Assembly (NCBI GenBank): GCA_041666205.1
Contig: JBAYHI010000001.1
Location: forward strand, 90,894 to 154,893
From: Patescibacteria group bacterium
GTDB taxonomy: Bacteria; Patescibacteriota; Patescibacteriia; UBA9934
Direction of reading: 5' to 3'
Length of the DNA: 64,000 bases
A program made the position numbers and the translations under genes. Numbering within the stretch: position 1 is the stretch's first letter; each line of letters opens with the position of its first letter. Shown here piece after piece: positions 15,315-63,697 of this stretch. Below the pieces are notes generated by a model that was not told the DNA's origin, searched no databases, and saw only the letters and a list, made by a program, of their open reading frames with translations.

Positions 15315-15375
15315 CCCTTCTCGGGTTATTTTCAATATTCATGTGATGGCTTGCCATCCGTAGCCATGAAAAACT

Positions 15376-15410
15376 CGATTCGCGTCCTCCTTCGCTCTGT
15401 AAGAGCAGAG
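15376..15410 (+). repeat. family-2 structured repeat (CCTCCTTCGCTCTG-loop-CAGAGCTACGGAGGA)
   Basis: A 15-bp imperfect hairpin with a conserved internal mismatch block. Related copies lie at 15448-15485, 21384-21418, 33348-33383, 63110-63138 and 63557-63596. Confidence 0.6.
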
Positions 15411-15447
15411 CTACGGAGGACAACCCTCGTTTCAGCTGACAAACCAA

Positions 15448-15485
15448 CGATGGCTTGCCAACCGTAGCTTCAGCGATAGCTGAAG
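15448..15485 (-). repeat. family-2 structured repeat, inverted copy, abutting tRNA-Gly
   Basis: Reverse complement reads CCAACCTTCGCTTCAGC-TATC-GCTGAAGCTACGGTTGG. The 21-mer GATGGCTTGCCA(T/A)CCGTAGC also recurs at 15343 and 15450. Confidence 0.55.
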
Positions 15486-15492
15486 CGAAGGT

Positions 15493-15567
15493 TGGAGCGG
15501 GTGAACGGAATCGAACCGTCATCTTCAGCTTGGAAGGCTGACATAATAACCACTATACGACACCCGC
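15493..15567 (-). tRNA. tRNA-Gly (anticodon TCC)
   Basis: Reverse complement GCGGGTG...CAGCC-TTCCAAG-GCTGA...GGTTCGATTCC...CACCCGC-T-CCA is a cloverleaf with anticodon UCC. Confidence 0.8.
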
Positions 15568-16994: not shown

Positions 16995-17071
16995 CGGGCT
17001 GTAGCTCAGGTGGCTAGAGCGCTACGTTCGGGACGTAGAGGTCGCTGGTTCGAGTCCAGTCAGCCCGACCA
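16995..17071 (+). tRNA. tRNA-Pro (anticodon CGG)
   Basis: CGGGCTG...CTACG-TTCGGGA-CGTAG...GGTTCGAGTCC...CAGCCCG-A-CCA, with the C1:G72 pair characteristic of bacterial tRNA-Pro. Confidence 0.85.
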
Positions 17072-17212
17072 TGGAATATTTACCCAAGTTTGTCAGCTAC
17101 TGCGTTGCGGGTCCCTGAATTTTCCTCACCGTACATTTGGGTACGGCTCAGAAAATTCATCCCGCGCCTTGTATCTGTTAAACTTAGTAAATATTCGAAG
17201 AGCGGTTAGTGT

Positions 17213-17289
17213 CGGGCTGTAGCGCAGTTGGCTAGCGCGCTTGCATGGGGTGCAAGAGGTCGACGGTTCAAGTCCGTTCAGCCCGACCA
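17213..17289 (+). tRNA. tRNA-Pro (anticodon GGG)
   Basis: CGGGCTG...CTTGC-ATGGGGT-GCAAG...GGTTCAAGTCC...CAGCCCG-A-CCA. A paralog of the CGG copy; both carry the same 3' trailer TGGAA(T/C)ATTTACCCAAGT. Confidence 0.85.
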
Positions 17290-17372
17290 TGGAACATTTA
17301 CCCAAGTCAATTTTCAAAATTAGCGCATCCGATCCGGGTGCATTTTTGTTTGCTTCGCGCTATCATGGCGCT

Positions 17373-18900: not shown

Positions 18901-18936
18901 ACAAAAAAGAGGCTCGATTGAGCTTCTCTTTTGGCA
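18901..18936 (+). terminator. intrinsic terminator after the APH-like gene
   Basis: AAAAGAGGCTCGATTGAGCTTCTCTTTT: a stem plus a T-run. Confidence 0.6.
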
Positions 18937-19031
18937 ATGCTTTGCGTGGCTATCACCGAGCTTAGCCTGCTTTTTGTTTCCGCGACGAACGCTCAGCGTT
19001 CGTCATCTCACAGAAACCGAGCTAAGCTCGG

Positions 19032-19108
19032 TGGTGGGTGTGGATGGACTCGAACCATCGACCTCAGTCTTATCAGGACTGCGCTCTAACCACCTGAGCT
19101 ACACACCC
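19032..19108 (-). tRNA. tRNA-Ile (anticodon GAT)
   Basis: Reverse complement GGGTGTGTAGCTCAGGTGGTTAGAGCGCAGTC-CTGATAA-GACTG...GGTTCGAGTCC...CACACCC-A-CCA. Confidence 0.9.
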
Positions 19109-19131
19109 ATTGATCAAAAAATTGTGCCGTT

Positions 19132-19161
19132 ATCATAACGAAAAACCCTTGAACCGTCAAG
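19132..19161 (-). promoter_or_regulatory. promoter for tRNA-Ile (TTGACG-18-TATGAT)
   Basis: On the minus strand, TTGACG is the reverse complement of 19156-19161 and TATGAT of 19132-19137. It is divergent from the tRNA-Pro/Phe promoter. Confidence 0.5.
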
Positions 19162-19171
19162 CGGAGTCCCT

Positions 19172-19200
19172 TGCAAGAAAAGCCGTTTTCTGATATATTC
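19172..19200 (+). promoter_or_regulatory. promoter for the tRNA-Pro(TGG)-tRNA-Phe pair (TTGCAA-17-TATATT)
   Basis: TTGCAA at 19172-19177 and TATATT at 19195-19200, about 10 nt before the tRNA 5' end. Confidence 0.55.
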
Positions 19201-19209
19201 TTTTCACAT

Positions 19210-19286
19210 TCGGGCTGTAGCTCAGATGGCTAGAGCGCCTGGTTTGGGACCAGGAGGTCGCTGGTTCGAGCCCAGTCAGCCCGACC
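19210..19286 (+). tRNA. tRNA-Pro (anticodon TGG)
   Basis: CGGGCTG...CCTGG-TTTGGGA-CCAGG...GGTTCGAGCCC...CAGCCCG-A-CCA. Confidence 0.85.
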
Positions 19287-19300
19287 ATGTAAAATTGAAG

Positions 19301-19376
19301 TGCCGAGGTAGCTCAGTGGTAGAGCAGAGGTCTGAAGAACCTCGTGTCGTGAGTTCAATTCTCACCCTCGGCACCA
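19301..19376 (+). tRNA. tRNA-Phe (anticodon GAA)
   Basis: GCCGAGGTAGCTCAGTGGTAGAGCAGAGGT-CTGAAGA-ACCTC...GAGTTCAATTCTCAC-CCTCGGC-A-CCA. Confidence 0.9.
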
Positions 19377-19426
19377 GATAAGAATGAATTCCCCGAGAGG
19401 GGATTTTTGATATAAAATATCTGCAT

Positions 19427-19897
19427 ATGATCTCATGCAAGAATAACCGAGACGAAGAAGTGATCCTCCCCAAGGAAAAATTTCGTTTTCGTCCAAGCGT
19501 CTATGGAATTATCCGCAATGGCGATAAGATTTGTATCTGCACCAATAAAGGAAACGGGAAGTATTGGTTTCCTGGTGGGGGAATAAATGTCTGTGAGTTA
19601 AGGAAGGATGCGCTTTTACGTGAAATTGATGAAGAAACCGGGCTCAAGAATGTACAAATTGGGCCATTAGTTGGGTCGCATGAGAATTTTTATTACTACG
19701 AGCCAACAGACGAAGCTTCTCATTATTATCTATTTTTCTATGAGTGCCAGACGAATGAGGTGACACTGAAAACCAATGAGGAAATTGATGACGATGAGGT
19801 GATAAATGTAAAATGGGTCAGTATTTCGGAACTAAAGAAAGACGATTTTTCGGGTTTGAACGATGAAATTTTCGGAATGATCCAGGCCCTCAAATAA
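19427..19897 (+). CDS. NUDIX hydrolase
   Basis: The Nudix box GGGINVCELRKDALLREIDEETGL (GX5EX7REUXEEXGU). The gene is flanked at 19383-19405 and 19912-19935 by copies of the same hairpin-plus-T-run element CCCCGAGAGGGGATTTTT. Confidence 0.8.
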   Translation: MISCKNNRDEEVILPKEKFRFRPSVYGIIRNGDKICICTNKGNGKYWFPGGGINVCELRKDALLREIDEETGLKNVQIGPLVGSHENFYYYEPTDEASHYYLFFYECQTNEVTLKTNEEIDDDEVINVKWVSISELKKDDFSGLNDEIFGMIQALK

Positions 19898-19999
19898 CAT
19901 GGAGTAAAAATTCTCCCCGAGAGGGGATTTTTTTGTTTATCTTGTCTCAAATAGGTTGATGCGATAGAATACGACCAATCTTATTCGTTATTATTTTTT

Positions 20000-20338
20000 A
20001 TGAAAAAGCCTCTTGTCATTGTTGGAGGACTCCTGCTCGCAGTCGGCCTCTTACTTGGGATCATGGGAACTGAACGGATGGTAAAATCTGGTGAGAGTTC
20101 TGATAGTGCCGCGTTTTACTATGTGATGTATGAAGATGCAATAAGCATCGAAGATTATGAAAGTGCTGATATGTACATGAATTGGGCGATTTCTGATTTT
20201 GATCTTTCCGATTCTCGCAAGGCAACGGCGATTGGTGAAGGGGTTACTAGTTTCGTATTATTGGCTGGTGGAGCAGTATTGCTCTTCTTGGGGCTTAAAG
20301 GAAAAAAGAATGGAAAGATGATGAAGCCAATGGTCTAG
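20000..20338 (+). CDS. small membrane protein (two predicted TM helices)
   Basis: Hydrophobic N- and C-terminal segments; followed by the terminator AACTTCC-tcgcaatgg-GGAAGTTTTTTT at 20349-20376. Confidence 0.45.
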   Translation: MKKPLVIVGGLLLAVGLLLGIMGTERMVKSGESSDSAAFYYVMYEDAISIEDYESADMYMNWAISDFDLSDSRKATAIGEGVTSFVLLAGGAVLLFLGLKGKKNGKMMKPMV

Positions 20339-20385
20339 AATTTTTAGAAAACTTCCTCGCAATGGGGAAGTTTTTTTATTGTCTA

Positions 20386-20430
20386 AAAACGCGAAGACTC
20401 CCGGCCAAGGAGTGGGGGAGTCTGAGGGGG
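20386..20430 (-). repeat. 45-bp hairpin/terminator repeat, copy 1 (3' of gene 20436-20840)
   Basis: Minus strand: CCCCTCAGACTCCCCCACTCCTTGGCCGGGAGTCTTCGCGTTTTT, i.e. stem GACTCCC...GGGAGTC plus a T-rich tail. A second copy at 20893-20937 differs by one base. Confidence 0.65.
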
Positions 20431-20435
20431 ACGTG

Positions 20436-20840
20436 CTAGTGGTCGAGTTCCGCCAACACGTTTGCCACGAGTTTGGCGAGCACCTGGCGCCGCAGGTCTG
20501 GGTATGAGTCGGCGATACTCACGAGGAGCCAGAGGGGCATGCCTTGGTGGTCGATTATTGCCCTGCAGACCTCGATCCTCAGATTTTTCGGTGTGAGGTT
20601 CCCGAAGAGGCGTTCGTTCACCTGGCCTCGATTGGCCCACCCTCTATTGAGGATCAGATTCATGGATCTTATCCCGAATCGGACGTCTCCGGCTCCACTT
20701 CGCATGATGAGCCACAGTTCATCAGCTGACGCGTCAGATCTACGTAGCAACGCATCGGCCATCTGTGGGGTACATCGGCCTTCTAGTACCCGGATCGTTA
20801 GCACGCTGGTTTCGAAATCGGCGAAGTTTTCTTCACCCAT
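20436..20840 (-). CDS. hypothetical protein, GC-rich island A, paralog 1 (about 134 aa)
   Basis: ATG at 20840 preceded by AAGGAGGAAT (SD). The codon usage is GC-rich and unlike the neighbours. The ORF-track 5' extension reads through the upstream repeat and is probably not translated. Confidence 0.5.
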   Translation of the reverse strand: MGEENFADFETSVLTIRVLEGRCTPQMADALLRRSDASADELWLIMRSGAGDVRFGIRSMNLILNRGWANRGQVNERLFGNLTPKNLRIEVCRAIIDHQGMPLWLLVSIADSYPDLRRQVLAKLVANVLAELDH

Positions 20841-20892
20841 TGTGAATTCCTCCTTGTTCAATTTTACAGATTGCCGTGGATAAAAACAACCC

Positions 20893-20937
20893 AAAAACGC
20901 GAAGACTCCCGGCCGAGGAGTGGGGGAGTCTGAGGGG
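20893..20937 (-). repeat. 45-bp hairpin/terminator repeat, copy 2 (3' of gene 20951-21355)
   Basis: Near-identical to 20386-20430, with a single A/G difference. Confidence 0.65.
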
Positions 20938-20950
20938 GGTTTGAGACCAT

Positions 20951-21355
20951 CTAGTGCGATGAAGCTTCCCATCGGAGCCTTGCCATGGTGCGGATGATGG
21001 TCGCCTCGGCTTCGTCGCGAAGCTCCGGAAATTCCTCGAAGATGTAGCCCAAGAGTCGTAACCCTGGGTCGAAGAGTTTGTCAGTTGGGCTTGCAGCCTT
21101 CGTGATGAGCCATCGTGCGACCGCGAGTCGCAAGGGGCGCACTCCATTCCATGCGTAGTTGTGATCGTAGAAAATACGCACGAAGAGCATCAAACACTCT
21201 GCTTCGTCGGCCCAGTTGTGGCGAATAAATTGTGCTTCCTTGAGGAGCTCGCCAAGCGCTTCGAGTCGCTTTTCAAGCGACGCCTGTTGGTCCCGAACAG
21301 TCTCGCGCAAACGATCTTCTTTATTATGGTCGTACAAGATGTGCCTCCGGGTCAA
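20951..21355 (-). CDS. hypothetical protein, GC-rich island A, paralog 2 (134 aa)
   Basis: By-eye alignment to 20436-20840 suggests distant paralogy: ADE(L/A)..L, NRGWANRG vs HNYAWNGV, YPDLRRQ vs FPELRDE near the C-terminus. Confidence 0.5.
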   Translation of the reverse strand: MTRRHILYDHNKEDRLRETVRDQQASLEKRLEALGELLKEAQFIRHNWADEAECLMLFVRIFYDHNYAWNGVRPLRLAVARWLITKAASPTDKLFDPGLRLLGYIFEEFPELRDEAEATIIRTMARLRWEASSH

Positions 21356-21383
21356 TTTAACCAGGGAATGTCTGGAAAATCAA

Positions 21384-21418
21384 CCCTCCTTTGCTCCGTA
21401 GAACGGAGCTTCGGAGGA
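21384..21418 (+). repeat. family-2 structured repeat copy between island A and the 16S terminator
   Basis: CCCTCCTTTGCTCCG-TAGAA-CGGAGCTTCGGAGGA. Confidence 0.55.
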
Positions 21419-21593
21419 TTATTTTTACTGAATGTCTTTTTGTAAAAATATAAATCTCCCTTTTGGGGAGTTTCTTATAACTCTAATCGACAATCTACAA
21501 TTTAGAACTATGTGATTACAACGTCTTATTTTCACAATTCCCGAAGGAATTATGAATCGACTTAATCATCTTGTAAAAAGATGAAGTTCCCTA

Positions 21594-23095
21594 GAAAGGA
21601 GGTAATCCATCCACAGCTTCCGCTACGGATGCCTTGTTACGACTTCGTCCCTATTGCTGGTTTTGCCTTCCGCCGCTCTACAGCGACGTTCGGGCACCAC
21701 CAACTCTCTTGACGTGACGGGCGGTGAGTACAAGACCTGAGAACGTATTCAAGGTGGCGTTATGATCCACCTTTACTAGCGATTCCAACTTCATGGAGTC
21801 GAGTTTCAGACTCCAATCCGAACTGAGATTGGTTTTGTGAGATTTGCTCCGCCTCGCGGCTTGGCTTCCCATTGTACCAACCATTGTACCATGCGTGTCG
21901 CCCTGGACGTAAGGGCCACGCTGATTTGACGTCATCCCCTCCTTCCTCCTTCTTGCGAAGGCAGTCTCCCGTGAAAATAATAACACAGGACAGGGGTTGC
22001 GCTCGTTACCCCACTTAAGGGTACACCTCACGGCACGAGCTGACGACAACCGTGCAGCACCTATCTAGCACCCTCGAAGGAGCCTTACTTTCATAAGGTT
22101 AGCAGCTAGTAGTTGAGCCCAGGTGAGGTTTCTCGTGTATCATCGAATTAAACCGCATGGTCCACCGCTTGTGCAGGTCCCCGTCTATTCCTTTGAGTTT
22201 TAACCTTGCGGTCGTACTTCCCAGGCGGAGTGCTTAACGCGTTAGCTTGTTTAAGCGGCACCAAGAGGGTCGATACTCTTGATACCTAGCACTCATCGTT
22301 TACGGCATGGACTACTGGGGTATCTAATCCCATTCGCTACCCATGCTTTCGTACAACAGTGTCAGGAACATTCTAGTTGGCTGCTTTCGCATTTGGTGTT
22401 CTACCTAATCTTAACGGATTTAACCCCTACACTAGGCATTCCGCCAACCTCTCTTGTCCTCGAGTCTTGCAGTATCACCCGCAGCCTCCAGGTTGAGCCT
22501 GAAGATTTAACGAATGACTTACAAAACCACCTACGTACTCTTTACGCCCAATAAATCCGGTCAACGCTCGGGGTCTCTGTATTACCGCTGCTGCTGGCAC
22601 AGAGTTAGCAACCCCTTTCTTCTAAGGTACCGTCATTAATTCGTCCCTTAGGACAGTCGTTTACGACCCGAAGGCCTTCATCCGACACGCGGCATCGCTC
22701 CGTCACACTTTCGTGCATTGCGGAATATTCTTGACTGCAGCCTCCCGTAGGAGTCTGGGCAGTATCTCAGTCCCAGTGAGCCGGGTCACGCTCTCACGCC
22801 CGGTATCCGTCATAGCCTTGGTGAGCCATTACCTCACCAACTAGCTGATAGAACATAGGCCCTTCCCGAACCGATAAATCTTTCAATGAGAATGACTTTC
22901 GTCCCCTCATCAGTATCGCGTATTAGCCCACGTTTCCATGGGTTATTCGCGAGTTCAGGGTAGGTTACCAATGCGTTACTCTCCCGTTTGCCACTAACAT
23001 CAGTGGAGCAAGCTCCACTAAAATTCGTTCGACTTGCATGCCTTAGACATGCCGCCAGCGTTCGACCTGAGCTAGGATCAAACTCTCATATATAG
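21594..23095 (-). rRNA. rrs: 16S ribosomal RNA
   Basis: The 5' end reads ...GAGAGTTTGATCCTAGCTCAG (reverse complement near 23067-23086), the 3' end ...GGATTACCTCCTTTCT (near 21595), and conserved internal blocks such as GTGCCAGCAGCCGCGGTAATAC are present. Confidence 0.9.
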
Positions 23096-32562: not shown

Positions 32563-33162
32563 ATGGAAAACGAAATTCAATCTCAATTTTTAATTCCAAC
32601 CGTTGTTGAAAAAACCAATTACGGTGAGCGATCCTACGACATTTATTCTCGACTTTTAAAGGATCGAATTATCTTTTTGGGTACGCCCATTGACGACAAT
32701 GTTGCCAATAGCATCATTGCTCAGTTACTTTTCTTGGCAAGCCAAGACAAAGAAAAAGAAATCAAACTCTATATCAACTCTCCGGGTGGATCGGTATCGG
32801 CTGGCCTCGCAATTTACGACACCATGCAATACATCAAACCTGATGTTTCAACCATTTGCGTGGGGCTTGCGGCAAGTATGGGCGCGGTGCTCCTCGCTGC
32901 CGGTGCGCCAGGGAAGCGTTTTGCTTTGCCAAACTCCGAAGTTATGATTCACCAGGTGCTTGGTGGGTTCAAGGGGCAAGCAACGGATATTAAAATTCAT
33001 GCCGAGCGCATCTTGAAAACAAAAGATCTCCTCAATGAAATTTTGGCAAAACACACGGGTCAGCCCATGAAAAAAGTCGAGGAAGATACGGATCGCGACC
33101 ACTTCTTGAGCGCCACGGAGGCAAAAAAATACGGGCTCATTGACAAGGTGATTGCGGGGTAG
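32563..33162 (+). CDS. clpP: ATP-dependent Clp protease proteolytic subunit
   Basis: The active-site region [16 protein letters not shown] plus the conserved His and Asp context, with typical ClpP length. No clpX follows. Confidence 0.95.
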
Positions 33163-33430: not shown

Positions 33431-35389
33431 TTATTCGGTTGGTGTTGCGTCGGCTGGAACGTCTGTGACTTCCAGAGGGGTTTCTTCGGCTACGGGTGTG
33501 GTCTCTGCCGTTGCTAACGTATCTGTTCCTTTGCCAACCATGCAGATTTTTGGAAGCGATCGATAAACAGACGTATAGTTTTTGGAGAATTGAGTGCCAT
33601 CGGCGTATTCTACGAAGTAGTCAAAACTCGTGGTCGCGCCCGCGTGAGGGGATTGGCAACGCTCAACGCCTGGCGCCAGATCGGTTGTTTCAATGCGTTG
33701 TGCTTCCCCGTATCCGGTCCATTGCAATACTTGCGGGGCGCTATAATAGCCTTTGCGACCATCGGAGGTTCCCCAAAATGTGAAATAGATAATTTGATTT
33801 GAGGTGTTTACCTCGGTTGTGAGCAAAATGTAATTTGCCGTATCATTGGTGAATTTCAAATCCGGCGCTGGATCGTAGAGAGTGGCATCGGTTCCTGGTT
33901 TACCATTGGTTGGATCGTTGTAGTAGGAAATCACGAGAGAATGATTTGTGCGTTCATCAACGCGCAGACCCGAATTCATGACCGCGCGGAATGCGGTTGT
34001 TCCAATCTGGCATAGTCCACCTCCGATTTCTGGTTTGATTTCTGTGCCTTTAATCACGAGCTCTGGCAGATATCCATCAGCCACGGTAAATGGGCGCAAA
34101 TGTTCAATGAGTGAAATCGTCTCCCCTGGGGCAACTAGAAGCCCGTCGAGTTTTGATGCACCATGTTTAATGTTTGCAATGCGATTACTCGGAGACCCAC
34201 CATAATCGGATGTTCCAACACCCAGGATTTCTTGAATACCCAAGTTATTCGTGCTTCCGGTTGTAATTTCCGGGGGAACAGATTTTACAATAATTGGCGT
34301 GGATAGCTCTGCGCTCCCAAGGATACCAAGTAGGGCTTCTTGCGTTGCCGTTTCATTGAGCGCAATGCCTTCAAGACTACTTACAAATTCTGTAACCCGC
34401 CCGTTTTCCATGGTGAATTTTGCGTCTCGAGGCGCTACGTCGATGTCTCCATGAATTTCGGAGAAGAACGCTGCGATTGCACTGGCGTCAAGCGAAACAA
34501 TGAGTTCTTCTTCCAGATTTTTTGCTGGCACAATCCAATTCGCAATTTGCTCTTGCGAGATATCCCAGGCGAAGTTTTTTTGTTCCTGTGACGTATAGGT
34601 GAGGGTATAGGGCGCAGTCTCAACGATCGCTTTGGCGGTATCCAGGAGTGTTTCCGCTTCGGCAACCGATACGGGATTTTGCGTCTTCTCAAGAGAGAGC
34701 GTGAGTTTTTCCAGAGAAAAATCCTTCATGTCGGTTTGCAGGGTTTGCATGGCACTGTCGAGCGTGAGCTCTTCGCCAATGGTTCCTTCTTTTGCGCTCA
34801 CAACAATTTCATCTCCCTCAAAAACGACTTGGAAGTCCGTGACCATGCCTGGAGTTTCCTGATCGCCAAATAAGCGTTCGATTTCTTGTTGAATGGTTGC
34901 AGTATCGATGGTAATTTCCGGATCAATGGATACCCCTGTTGCAATGACCGAGCTTCCAACGAGCAAATGACGGGAAAAATTGGCGTCGCGTCCGGCAGAA
35001 AATGCTTTTTCCACAGCAGTATTTGCGTTGAAAGACACGAGATCGCGAATGAGATCAGGATCGGTTGACCCGCTCATGCGTAAATTGATTTTTTCGTTTG
35101 TGCCGTCAGGCCCTACCACGGTAAGACCGGCCTCGAGCATGTCGCGGTAGATTTTATTGAGGTAATCTTGTGCTTCCAGCTTAGTCATGGAGCCAACGGA
35201 AACATCGCCAACCGTGACGTGCGGATAAATGCGATTTTCAAAAACCTTGGCATAGGCAAGCAGGGAACTACCTGCTGTTAGAGCGCAGACCACAATCACC
35301 CCAAAGCCGATGGCGAATTTTTTACTGTGCTTGGCAAACCAGAGGCCTATTTTTTTGAAAAACGATCCGATTGCGTTGAAAATTTTCAT
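33431..35389 (-). CDS. VanW-family protein (N-terminal TM anchor)
   Basis: C-terminal VanW signature GGGLCQIGTTAFRAVMNSGL, with preceding repeats consistent with PG-binding-4/G5-like regions. Confidence 0.75.
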   Translation of the reverse strand: MKIFNAIGSFFKKIGLWFAKHSKKFAIGFGVIVVCALTAGSSLLAYAKVFENRIYPHVTVGDVSVGSMTKLEAQDYLNKIYRDMLEAGLTVVGPDGTNEKINLRMSGSTDPDLIRDLVSFNANTAVEKAFSAGRDANFSRHLLVGSSVIATGVSIDPEITIDTATIQQEIERLFGDQETPGMVTDFQVVFEGDEIVVSAKEGTIGEELTLDSAMQTLQTDMKDFSLEKLTLSLEKTQNPVSVAEAETLLDTAKAIVETAPYTLTYTSQEQKNFAWDISQEQIANWIVPAKNLEEELIVSLDASAIAAFFSEIHGDIDVAPRDAKFTMENGRVTEFVSSLEGIALNETATQEALLGILGSAELSTPIIVKSVPPEITTGSTNNLGIQEILGVGTSDYGGSPSNRIANIKHGASKLDGLLVAPGETISLIEHLRPFTVADGYLPELVIKGTEIKPEIGGGLCQIGTTAFRAVMNSGLRVDERTNHSLVISYYNDPTNGKPGTDATLYDPAPDLKFTNDTANYILLTTEVNTSNQIIYFTFWGTSDGRKGYYSAPQVLQWTGYGEAQRIETTDLAPGVERCQSPHAGATTSFDYFVEYADGTQFSKNYTSVYRSLPKICMVGKGTDTLATAETTPVAEETPLEVTDVPADATPTE

Positions 35390-40812: not shown

Positions 40813-40975
40813 CCGTAGAATTTGGCTAAAAGCCTTATTTTAAGCCAAATTTTTAGGTTTTTGGCTAACTTTTGAGGGCGAAAAAGGGCCGGGAATCCGA
40901 ACCCCTATCAATCCGGGTTCGATTCCAGATACGAACAATCCCTCATAGCTCCAGCTTTGCTGGAGCGACGAGGGA

Positions 40976-62894: not shown

Positions 62895-63033
62895 GAGAGT
62901 CCTCCTGGTAGATCGAGTTACTCTTGAGTTGCGGATTACATTGGAACAGAAAATTGATGTTTCGTCAAGCCTTATTCGTTGACATTACTGCAAAAATTAG
63001 ATATGATCTTCGCACGGTTTGGCTTTTGAACAC

Positions 63034-63110
63034 GCGGCGTTAGCTCAGCTGGATAGAGCGTCTGGCTTCGGACCAGAAGGTCGGGGGTTCAAATCCTCCA
63101 CGCCGCACCA
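63034..63110 (+). tRNA. tRNA-Arg (anticodon TCG)
   Basis: GCGGCGTTAGCTCAGCTGGATAGAGCGTCTGG-CTTCGGA-CCAGA-AGGTC-GGGGGTTCAAATCCTCC-ACGCCGC-A-CCA; the promoter TTGACA-17-TATGAT lies at about 62996-63024. The anticodon reading is moderately confident. Confidence 0.7.
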
Positions 63111-63138
63111 GCCTTCGCTTCCTTTGGAAGCTACGGCT
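63110..63138 (+). repeat. family-2 structured repeat (degenerate copy) immediately 3' of tRNA-Arg
   Basis: AGCCTTCGCTTCCTTTGGAAGCTACGGCT. Confidence 0.5.
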
Positions 63139-63296
63139 GGCAGGCCATCGCGAAAAAGATTCATAGATTTAGCGAATGTATGAATTTAGATGGATTGCAA
63201 GGAAAAAATCGAGCAATGAGGAGACGTACCTATATGGTACGACGACGAAATGCACAGATTTTTGACGAAGCAAGCCGCTAAATTCATAATGAGCAT

Positions 63297-63371
63297 ATGC
63301 ACCGATAGCTCAGCGGTAGAGCAGGTGGCTCTTAACCACTTGGTCGGGGGTTCAAATCCCTCTCGGTGCAC
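63297..63371 (+). tRNA. tRNA-Lys (anticodon CTT)
   Basis: GCACCGATAGCTCAGCGGTAGAGCAGGTGG-CTCTTAA-CCACT...GGTTCAAATCCCTC-TCGGTGC-A-CCA; the promoter TTGACG-17-CATAAT is upstream, and the terminator CACTCAGG-ttgac-CCTGGGTGTTTTT follows. Confidence 0.85.
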
Positions 63372-63538
63372 CACAAAAACACTCAGGTTGACCCTGGGTG
63401 TTTTTGTATGAATCAAAGCAAACCAACTGCTTGGTTTGCGTAGGGATTTTGAACGCCGGAGCCATATTCTGCCAGCAGGCAGAATGGCGAGGCGGTGGCT
63501 AGGTCAAAGCAAGTGACGACGAGCTTTGAGCCGAAGCC

Positions 63539-63558
63539 AAATCCCTCTCGGTGCACCA
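63539..63558 (+). repeat. direct repeat of the last 20 nt of tRNA-Lys (AAATCCCTCTCGGTGCACCA)
   Basis: Identical to 63352-63371; it lies 168 bp downstream and is followed by a family-2 repeat (63557-63596) and a second copy of the tRNA-Lys terminator type (about 63620-63660). Confidence 0.6.
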
Positions 63559-63596
63559 TCCCCCTTCGCTCAACTTCGTTGAGCTACGGAGGGATG
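63557..63596 (+). repeat. family-2 structured repeat (CATCCCCCTTCGCTCAAC-ttcg-GTTGAGCTACGGAGGGATG)
   Basis: Carries the conserved CCTTCGCT...AGCTACGG blocks around an internal hairpin. Confidence 0.55.
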
Positions 63597-63697
63597 TCCC
63601 CAACGAAGCCCGAGTTTAACGAGGGCGAAGTGGAGACAAAAAGATACTCAAGTTTACCTTGGGTATTTTTTTAATTCTTGCTATACTCACCTCATCT

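Follow-up and report, generated by a model that had tools for sequence, protein, structure and literature searches.

A hairpin repeat with conserved internal-loop mismatches adjoins tRNA 3' ends in a Patescibacteria genome and recurs across bacterial phyla

Introduction

The 64,000-nt stretch of DNA analysed here (the window), from a Patescibacteria (CPR) MAG, carries six significant copies of a short hairpin repeat, where 0.01 would be expected by chance. The family to which they belong is not CPR-specific, and in its behaviour it is a REP/BIME-like dispersed DNA element. With a probability of roughly one half, we regard it as a REP/BIME-like hairpin module whose folded single strand is recognised by way of the internal loop and which in this genome is co-transcribed as a 3' trailer of stable RNAs. 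REP-type repeats are usually regarded as lineage-specific partners of RAYT transposases. In this family, by contrast, a consensus of about 40 nt with two unrepaired mismatches persists from streamlined CPR genomes to Bradyrhizobium and Acidobacteriota; the hairpin is tolerated within RNase P RNA and proteins, and its docking on tRNA CCA ends is confined to one orientation. Searches of the literature by sequence string and by topic returned no description of it.

Materials and methods

The window was searched with the pattern CCTTCGCT-N(6-20)-AGCTWCGG and with R1, a covariance model trained on 37 hairpin copies. R1 was also run on 18 kb of extra sequence flanking the window on the same contig. 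Across the sampled loci, R1 recovered 104 copies from 75 loci. Twenty-six of these lie outside the exact pattern and are therefore free of constraint from how the copies were found.

A genome collection of 596 Gb was searched with the 16-nt pattern, which gave many chance matches. In the genome and viral collections the exact 16-nt pattern is swamped by chance, and true copies were sorted by stem and flank criteria. A stricter pattern, CCTCCTTCGCT...AGCTWCGGAGG, was applied to metagenomes, with an estimated 5 or so matches expected by chance.

Results and discussion

Hairpin copies in the window

The pattern gave five matches in the window against 0.01 expected (none in 100 shuffles), and a sixth copy at 21388-21414, which reads CCTTTGCT, was added by allowing one mismatch. 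R1 returned exactly these six, at 28.8-48.5 bits and E values of 2e-8 to 4e-4; the next match had E>6. The six repeats listed in a first-pass annotation of the window are therefore real. Its coordinates were right for the last four, but those of the first two (15376-15410 and 15448-15485) lay about 10 nt too far left. R1 found zero copies in the further 18 kb of flank, which holds no tRNA beyond the window's own, and the copy number is six in 82 kb of one contig (window plus extra flank). In Rfam, the hairpin had no match at gathering thresholds and gave only noise at E<=10. The copies and the features that adjoin them are as follows.

15345..15364, minus strand: truncated copy, 3' half only (GCTACGGATGGCAAGCCATC), which agrees with the 3' half and tail of copies 2 and 5
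15384..15421, plus strand: copy 1, GUCCUCC-UUC-GCUCUG...CAGAGC-UAC-GGAGGAC; 42.3 bits with R1
15458..15495, minus strand: copy 2, outer stem CCAACC/GGUUGG, then CAAGCCAUCG; 36.9 bits
15493..15567, minus strand: tRNA-Gly(TCC), whose 3' CCA is part of the copy 2 outer stem
21385..21417, plus strand: copy 3, the CCTTTGCT variant, then ATTATTTTT; 28.8 bits
33344..33387, minus strand: copy 4, flanked by A6 and T6; 34.1 bits
40939..40975, minus strand: diverged relative abutting the tRNA-Glu CCA, TCCCTCGTCGCTCCAGC-aaa-GCTGGAGCTATGAGGGA
63034..63110, plus strand: tRNA-Arg(TCG); a promoter-like site of its own lies at 62979-63007
63108..63140, plus strand: copy 5, CCAGCC/GGCUGG, then CAGGCCAUCG; 48.5 bits
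63538..63558, plus strand: 21-nt duplicate of the tRNA-Lys 3' end, CAAATCCCTCTCGGTGCACCA, with copy 6 directly after it
63557..63596, plus strand: copy 6, CAUCCCCC-UUC-GCUCAAC...GUUGAGC-UAC-GGAGGGAUG; 39.1 bits
63600..63638, plus strand: degenerate inverted partner of copy 6, CCCCAAC-GAAGC-CC...GG-GCGAAG-TGGAG, seen in the alignment of the tRNA-Lys flanks and by comparison with other partner copies

Copies 1 and 2 are inverted partners, and the dimer lies downstream of tRNA-Gly; copies 2 and 5 begin within the CCA of tRNA-Gly and tRNA-Arg, respectively. In the relative at tRNA-Glu, the T.C mismatch has become G.T and the C.T mismatch is retained; its score falls under the R1 threshold.

All six copies, on either strand, share one fold, in which a 3x3 internal loop separates an outer stem of 5-10 bp from an inner stem of 6-8 bp; the z-scores are -4.8 to -7.1 and the dG values -20 to -26 kcal/mol. 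The outer stem leads into a symmetric internal loop (UUC/CUW), then GCU/AGC, and then a variable apical hairpin. The core pairing is C-G, C-G, T.C, T-A or T.T, C.T, G-C, C-G, T-A. On the opposite strand the loop reads GWA/GAA, that is, G.A / N.N / A.G between flanking C-G pairs, and this complementary strand is 0.2-3.7 kcal/mol more stable. For the family as a whole, the unit can be written Y-CCNCC / UUC.CUW 3x3 internal loop / GCU-AGC / variable apical hairpin / GGNGG-R, with a conserved unpaired tail, CARG(Y)C, after its 3' side. Apical stems and loops are unrelated among the six window copies, and the core is invariant. Two additions to this fold were rejected: an extra outer helix was unsupported (57% paired), and a supposed second hairpin, GGNGG-CAAG-CCNCC, is the junction of one copy's tail with the head of its inverted partner.

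Covarying stems and retained mismatches

Both stems, outer and inner, covary in alignment A1, with 78 two-sided changed cells against 31 when shuffled and 11-26 with slid partners. At one outer-stem pair (columns 8/50), for example, 26 copies have C-G and 11 have A-U. While the stems change in this way, the T.C mismatch is retained in 101 of 104 copies and the C.T mismatch in 102 of 103, as the first-pass annotation had proposed in describing the mismatch block as conserved rather than compensated. The middle pair of the loop varies freely in the same 104 copies (TA 53, TT 44, AT 2, GT 2, AA 2), and in a sub-family the adjacent T-A pair is replaced by C-G. Conserved mismatches within covarying stems argue for sequence- and structure-specific recognition and not for a generic terminator. 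The functional strand was also sought by counting G.T and A.C wobbles; mispairs showed no strand asymmetry (G.T 15, A.C 27), and the count gave no signal.

Ordinary intrinsic terminators that have come to look alike by convergence are a very improbable explanation of the copies. Such a role would suit copies 3 and 4, which are followed by T-runs. Copy 4 also lies between the convergent genes clpP (32563-33162, plus strand) and a VanW-domain gene (33431-35389, minus strand), where its A- and T-runs make it look like a bidirectional terminator. However, copies 1, 2, 5, and 6 have no U-tract, and copies of the family lie within ORFs and RNase P RNA. Moreover, several phyla have the 16-nt core and the conserved mismatches in common, which largely refutes convergence. 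The earlier rejection of a generic terminator therefore holds, on the conserved mismatches and on the presence of a U-tract in only two of the six copies.

Distribution across phyla

About 40-70 of the 125 genome matches are true hairpins, with flanks that agree beyond the pattern (5' gC[T/A][T/C]CCG; 3' CGG-R-C-A-R-G-Y-C). The carriers are Bradyrhizobium and other Alphaproteobacteria, Acidobacteriota, Verrucomicrobiota, Kiritimatiellia, Lentisphaerota, Elusimicrobia, Desulfobacterota, and several CPR lineages. The stricter pattern occurs at a minimum of 120 metagenome loci (at least 120), on contigs with a GC content of 0.30-0.71. Matches in viral contigs are mostly due to chance (about 8 true copies of 121), and a BLAST search of plasmids with the Bradyrhizobium variant gave no match.

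In eleven metagenome contigs (L261, L262, L265, L278, L286, L293, L303, L325, L335, L357, and L362) the motif is part of one shared composite, in which TTCTTCGGCGGAATCCGCCGAAGCAC is followed by the hairpin motif and then by GTCCG...GCATTCATCC...GGGCTTACGCCCG. Four of the contigs were compared with Rfam and gave no match. The composite may represent either a conserved non-coding RNA or some repeat carried by an abundant lineage.

Behaviour as dispersed DNA

Units occur singly, as inverted dimers about 3-40 nt apart, in clusters, and in tandem arrays. Inverted dimers or clusters are found in the window (15384/15495 and 63557/63638) and at L059, L104, L109, L143, L011, and L015. In a Komeilibacteria contig (L104, about 900-2150), a 122-nt unit made up of the motif, small hairpins, and the inverted motif is duplicated in tandem; a 29-nt tRNA 3' fragment, with no intact tRNA, precedes it. 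Copies also lie in intergenic DNA and, in frame, in the linker that follows the G/F-rich region of a dnaJ gene and in the linker of a TPR protein. Downstream of protein genes the orientation is random (15 sense, 15 antisense).

Other copies are nested in the loops of two further Bradyrhizobium repeat families, one of which matches GTAG-14 units. Nesting in the loops of other hairpins was seen at L016, L044, L077, L082, and L108 (Bradyrhizobium) and at L027, L096, L099, and L110; the hosts are GTAGGGTGGGCA...TGCCCACC repeats and a second palindrome family, CATTGCGAG...GCAATCC. Finally, helix P3 of one class-A RNase P RNA is a copy of the motif in the sense strand. In this metagenomic RNA (L259:7519-7848, minus strand, 108.7 bits), P3 is CUCCUCCUUCGCUCUUCGAGCUUCGGAGGAG, directly before GAGGAAAGUCCGG.

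All-against-all clustering of the ORFs within 3 kb revealed no protein that recurs near copies. The sole ORF clusters there were spurious ORFs that read through the repeats, and neither a transposase nor a recurrent neighbour gene was found near copies. A tblastn search of the window and about 240 loci with E. coli RayT gave only noise, the weak matches being an ORF that resembles a sigma factor and a large uncharacterised ORF. No Y1_Tnp, RAYT, or other HUH enzyme was present in the window, in the checked ORFs beside copies, or in the gene calls of the extra flank. Other contigs with the same genes are 99.6-100% identical and have no real indel, so they provide no presence/absence contrast.

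Comparison with known repeats

The family resembles the REP/BIME elements of E. coli in several respects. Both are imperfect palindromes of 30-45 nt with a conserved stem irregularity, which in E. coli is required for processing, the mismatches of the REP stem being required by TnpA-REP (PMC8266576). Both form inverted REP/iREP pairs as well as clusters, and both favour the 3' ends of genes, where the hairpin, like the REPs, is probably co-transcribed. In contrast to E. coli REPs, however, the hairpin lacks a free GTAG at its 5' end; the G[T/A]AG string is part of the internal loop and so is enclosed by the outer stem of 5-7 bp, and its second position is T or A with roughly equal frequency (53 to 44). 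The conserved unpaired tail is CARG(Y)C and lies at the other end. Further differences are that no RAYT turned up, that phyla share an identical core, that the apical stems are hypervariable, and that docking on tRNAs is orientation-specific. Unlike those of REPs and REPINs, the window copies are not near-identical, as their unrelated apical stems and loops show.

Di Nocera et al. (2013) described a GTAG-tagged REP super-family that includes Pseudomonas GTAG-1/2 and Bradyrhizobium GTAG-14, the units of the latter having large self-complementary GCGG/CCGC loops (PMC3733652). These loops probably contain the hairpin motif; the hairpin's sequence strings are absent from the supplementary files of that paper. 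Like the present family, GTAG REPs are stem-loops that fall into sub-families distinguished by complementary changes in the stem, form dimers both head to head and tail to tail, and are occasionally inserted in ORFs. However, the motif is nested inside GTAG REPs and is not one of them, and its taxonomic range, which includes CPR, is far wider. Br-REP1 and Br-REP2 of Bradyrhizobium also differ from the hairpin in sequence.

The family is at most a candidate member of the RAYT-associated REPs: GTAG is not free, RAYT was not found, the copies within a genome are not near-identical, and identity across phyla is atypical.

Integron attC sites are recognised as folded single strands, and their mismatches mark the strand. 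They resemble the hairpin in that conserved, imperfectly paired boxes with unpaired bases flank a variable central stem. The hairpin, however, has no R/L boxes (GTTRRRY), no cassettes or intI were seen, and nothing integrase-like recurs nearby. Small palindromes that are tolerated in proteins or in helices of structural RNAs are known from the Rickettsia palindromic elements (RPE) and from the cyanobacterial STRR in RNase P RNA. These differ from the present family in being unrelated in sequence and each confined to a single lineage, and they are not known to dock on tRNA ends. RPE are also mentioned in PMC3733652. The kink-turn, the sarcin-ricin loop, group II domain V, DNA uptake sequences, and XerCD dif were rejected on inspection for misfit of sequence or geometry.

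Docking on tRNA 3' ends

In the full set of sampled loci, a unit starts -2 to +4 nt from the 3' end of 15 tRNAs. The orientation is CCTTCG-first every time and never the reverse. Several more tRNAs directly precede (N)CCTTCGC in other arrangements. A diverse set of tRNAs is involved (Gly, Arg, Ser, Ala, Met, Pro, Val, Thr, Leu, and Ile). In one sub-family, with outer stem CCAN/N'TGG, the CCA itself is paired, and in CPR tRNA-Ser genes that encode no CCA the stem is built from the last acceptor nucleotides. The orientation in the window tracks the tRNA strand (tRNA-Gly and tRNA-Glu minus, tRNA-Arg plus). A replication-direction bias was rejected as the cause, sense copies being present at tRNAs on both strands of the window. 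From tRNA-Arg to the promoter-like site of tRNA-Lys, copy 5 is the sole hairpin found by eye or by hairpin scan.

Five of the six window copies lie near stable-RNA genes. The first-pass annotation had linked the repeat to the 3' regions of both tRNA and rRNA genes. The association with tRNA 3' ends stands and holds across phyla, the contacts with tRNA-Gly, tRNA-Arg, and the tRNA-Lys duplicate being exact. The association with rRNA is weak, copy 3 lying 181 nt past the 16S 3' end and antisense to the gene. A signal specific to stable RNAs is not supported by the wider survey. For the CCTCC sub-type, among the matches listed, 4 of 125 copies are at tRNAs, a share far above chance yet a minority; the other 121 are elsewhere, and copies also lie in intergenic DNA, ORFs, and other repeats. 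The even orientation after protein genes (15:15) speaks against it as well.

These observations bear on an RNA-level alternative, in which the hairpin is a cis-acting element of stable-RNA transcripts and the copies elsewhere are secondary spread or decayed relics. The 3' trailer hairpin is predicted to pair with the tRNA CCA and to set or protect the 3' end, and the conserved pyrimidine 3x3 loop would be the binding or cleavage site of a conserved RNase or RNA-binding protein, with RNase III, RNase Y, and RNase P as candidates. The alternative is possible but rather unlikely. It agrees with the one-sided orientation at tRNAs, with an outer stem that includes the CCA or acceptor end across CPR, Acidobacteriota, and Alphaproteobacteria, and with the core that stays invariant despite differing apical stems. 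The element also follows tRNA-Ser(GGA) in two divergent CPR genomes that have no common neighbour ORF within 3 kb, and the P3 of the RNase P RNA at L259 is formed by the sense strand. In the window, the copies near stable-RNA genes, their absence from the 18 kb of tRNA-less flank, the position of rnc immediately before tRNA-Arg, and the proximity of an RNase Y gene point the same way. However, an element of stable-RNA transcripts would not lead one to expect so few of the listed sub-type copies at tRNAs, random orientation after protein genes, or copies in frame within ORFs and inside other DNA repeats. G.U wobbles, moreover, are not in excess on the sense strand, and pairing of the CCA would hinder exonucleolytic 3' trimming.

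Some of the same facts count against the REP-like reading in its own right. The invariant core with differing apical stems looks like purifying selection and not like recent amplification, and the strict 15-to-0 orientation at tRNAs and the proximity of the window copies to stable-RNA genes are further points against it. REPs co-evolve with their RAYT, and near-identity over about 40 nt across phyla is unusual for them. The REP-like and RNA-level readings are nevertheless compatible, in that a dispersed element may be retained where its hairpin is useful.

tRNA 3'-end fragments and the tRNA-Lys duplication

tRNA 3' fragments precede copies in the window (63538-63558) and at L017, L059, and L104. 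Such fragments would suit a recombination (att-type) site, or the scar of small integrative elements that target tRNA 3' ends, as would two copies on viral contigs (L175 and L236), each directly after a tRNA 3' end. At L073 (6014-6190), the last 13 nt of tRNA-Arg(CCG), GCCGGGCGCGCCA, recur right after an element of about 95 nt and flank it like a target-site or att duplication. We consider this explanation improbable. No integrase recurs near copies, most copies have no tRNA context, and the viral contigs hold mostly chance matches. In the window, homologous terminators follow both tRNA-Lys ends, which indicates segmental duplication and not attL/attR.

At tRNA-Lys, an 80-nt block made up of copy 6 and its partner is present in one of two paralogous 3' flanks and absent from the other; it lies exactly between the CCA and the conserved terminator. 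Within 63299-63672, the final 21 nt of tRNA-Lys and the terminator occur twice (63353-63405 and 63538-63672), separated by about 165 nt of ORF-free, hairpin-rich DNA. The repeat of the tRNA-Lys end looks like a decayed tandem duplication rather than an att pair.

A possible mode of action and its significance

On the REP/BIME-like reading, the internal loop would be the recognition feature for a structure-specific protein that acts on the folded single strand. The likeliest candidate would be an HUH/Y1 (RAYT-like) or comparable enzyme supplied in trans, by parallel with the E. coli REPs and the requirement of TnpA-REP for their stem mismatches. In the CPR genome, copies would have been retained at the 3' ends of transcription units and co-transcribed as trailers; the retained sites would be those at tRNA-Gly, tRNA-Arg, the tRNA-Glu variant, the displaced tRNA-Lys end, the region downstream of 16S, and the interval between clpP and the VanW-domain gene. 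Trailer copies would act as 3' hairpin barriers, and copies 3 and 4, to judge from their U-tracts, may terminate transcription. Among the functions put forward in the first-pass annotation, a REP-like protein-binding site or a mobile-element end fits best.

More broadly, we tentatively suggest that the hairpin is an uncatalogued module of many phyla, with an identical core in CPR and Alphaproteobacteria, that is kept or spread by a broadly conserved structure-specific activity and has an orientation-specific tie to tRNA 3' ends, through either CCA-targeted insertion or a CCA-pairing trailer. If one conserved factor recognises the loop, it should be experimentally approachable, the ligand being short and defined and having natural variants. 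The family is also a handle on how tRNA transcripts end and are processed in CPR bacteria. In practical terms, it accounts for a class of spurious small ORFs and for repeat-induced problems of assembly and annotation in metagenomes.

Other features near the stable-RNA genes

A xylanase-like gene adjoins tRNA-Gly. The 16S gene is on the minus strand (21595-23093), and the window contains no 23S gene. About 2.4 kb (19108-21595) separate 16S from tRNA-Ile and hold ORFs of unknown function and a NUDIX gene, with tRNA-Pro and tRNA-Phe on the other strand.

A hairpin directly at the CCA seems to be the usual arrangement in this genome. tRNA-Ile (18930-19031, minus strand) has a different structure at its CCA, in which CCGAGCTTAGCTCGG pairs with GCTAAGCTCGG about 70 nt further on, with a GACGAACGC/GCGTTCGTC hairpin between the two. 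The hairpin at tRNA-Glu is followed downstream (40880-40938, minus strand) by the T-arm-like fragments GGAATCGAACCCGG and GGGGTTCGGATTCCC, which may be leftovers of other tRNA genes. At 16995-17310, tRNA-Pro(CGG) and tRNA-Pro(GGG) have a common 3' flank, TGGAAYATTTACCCAAGT, as if a tRNA-Pro gene had been duplicated in tandem together with its trailer.
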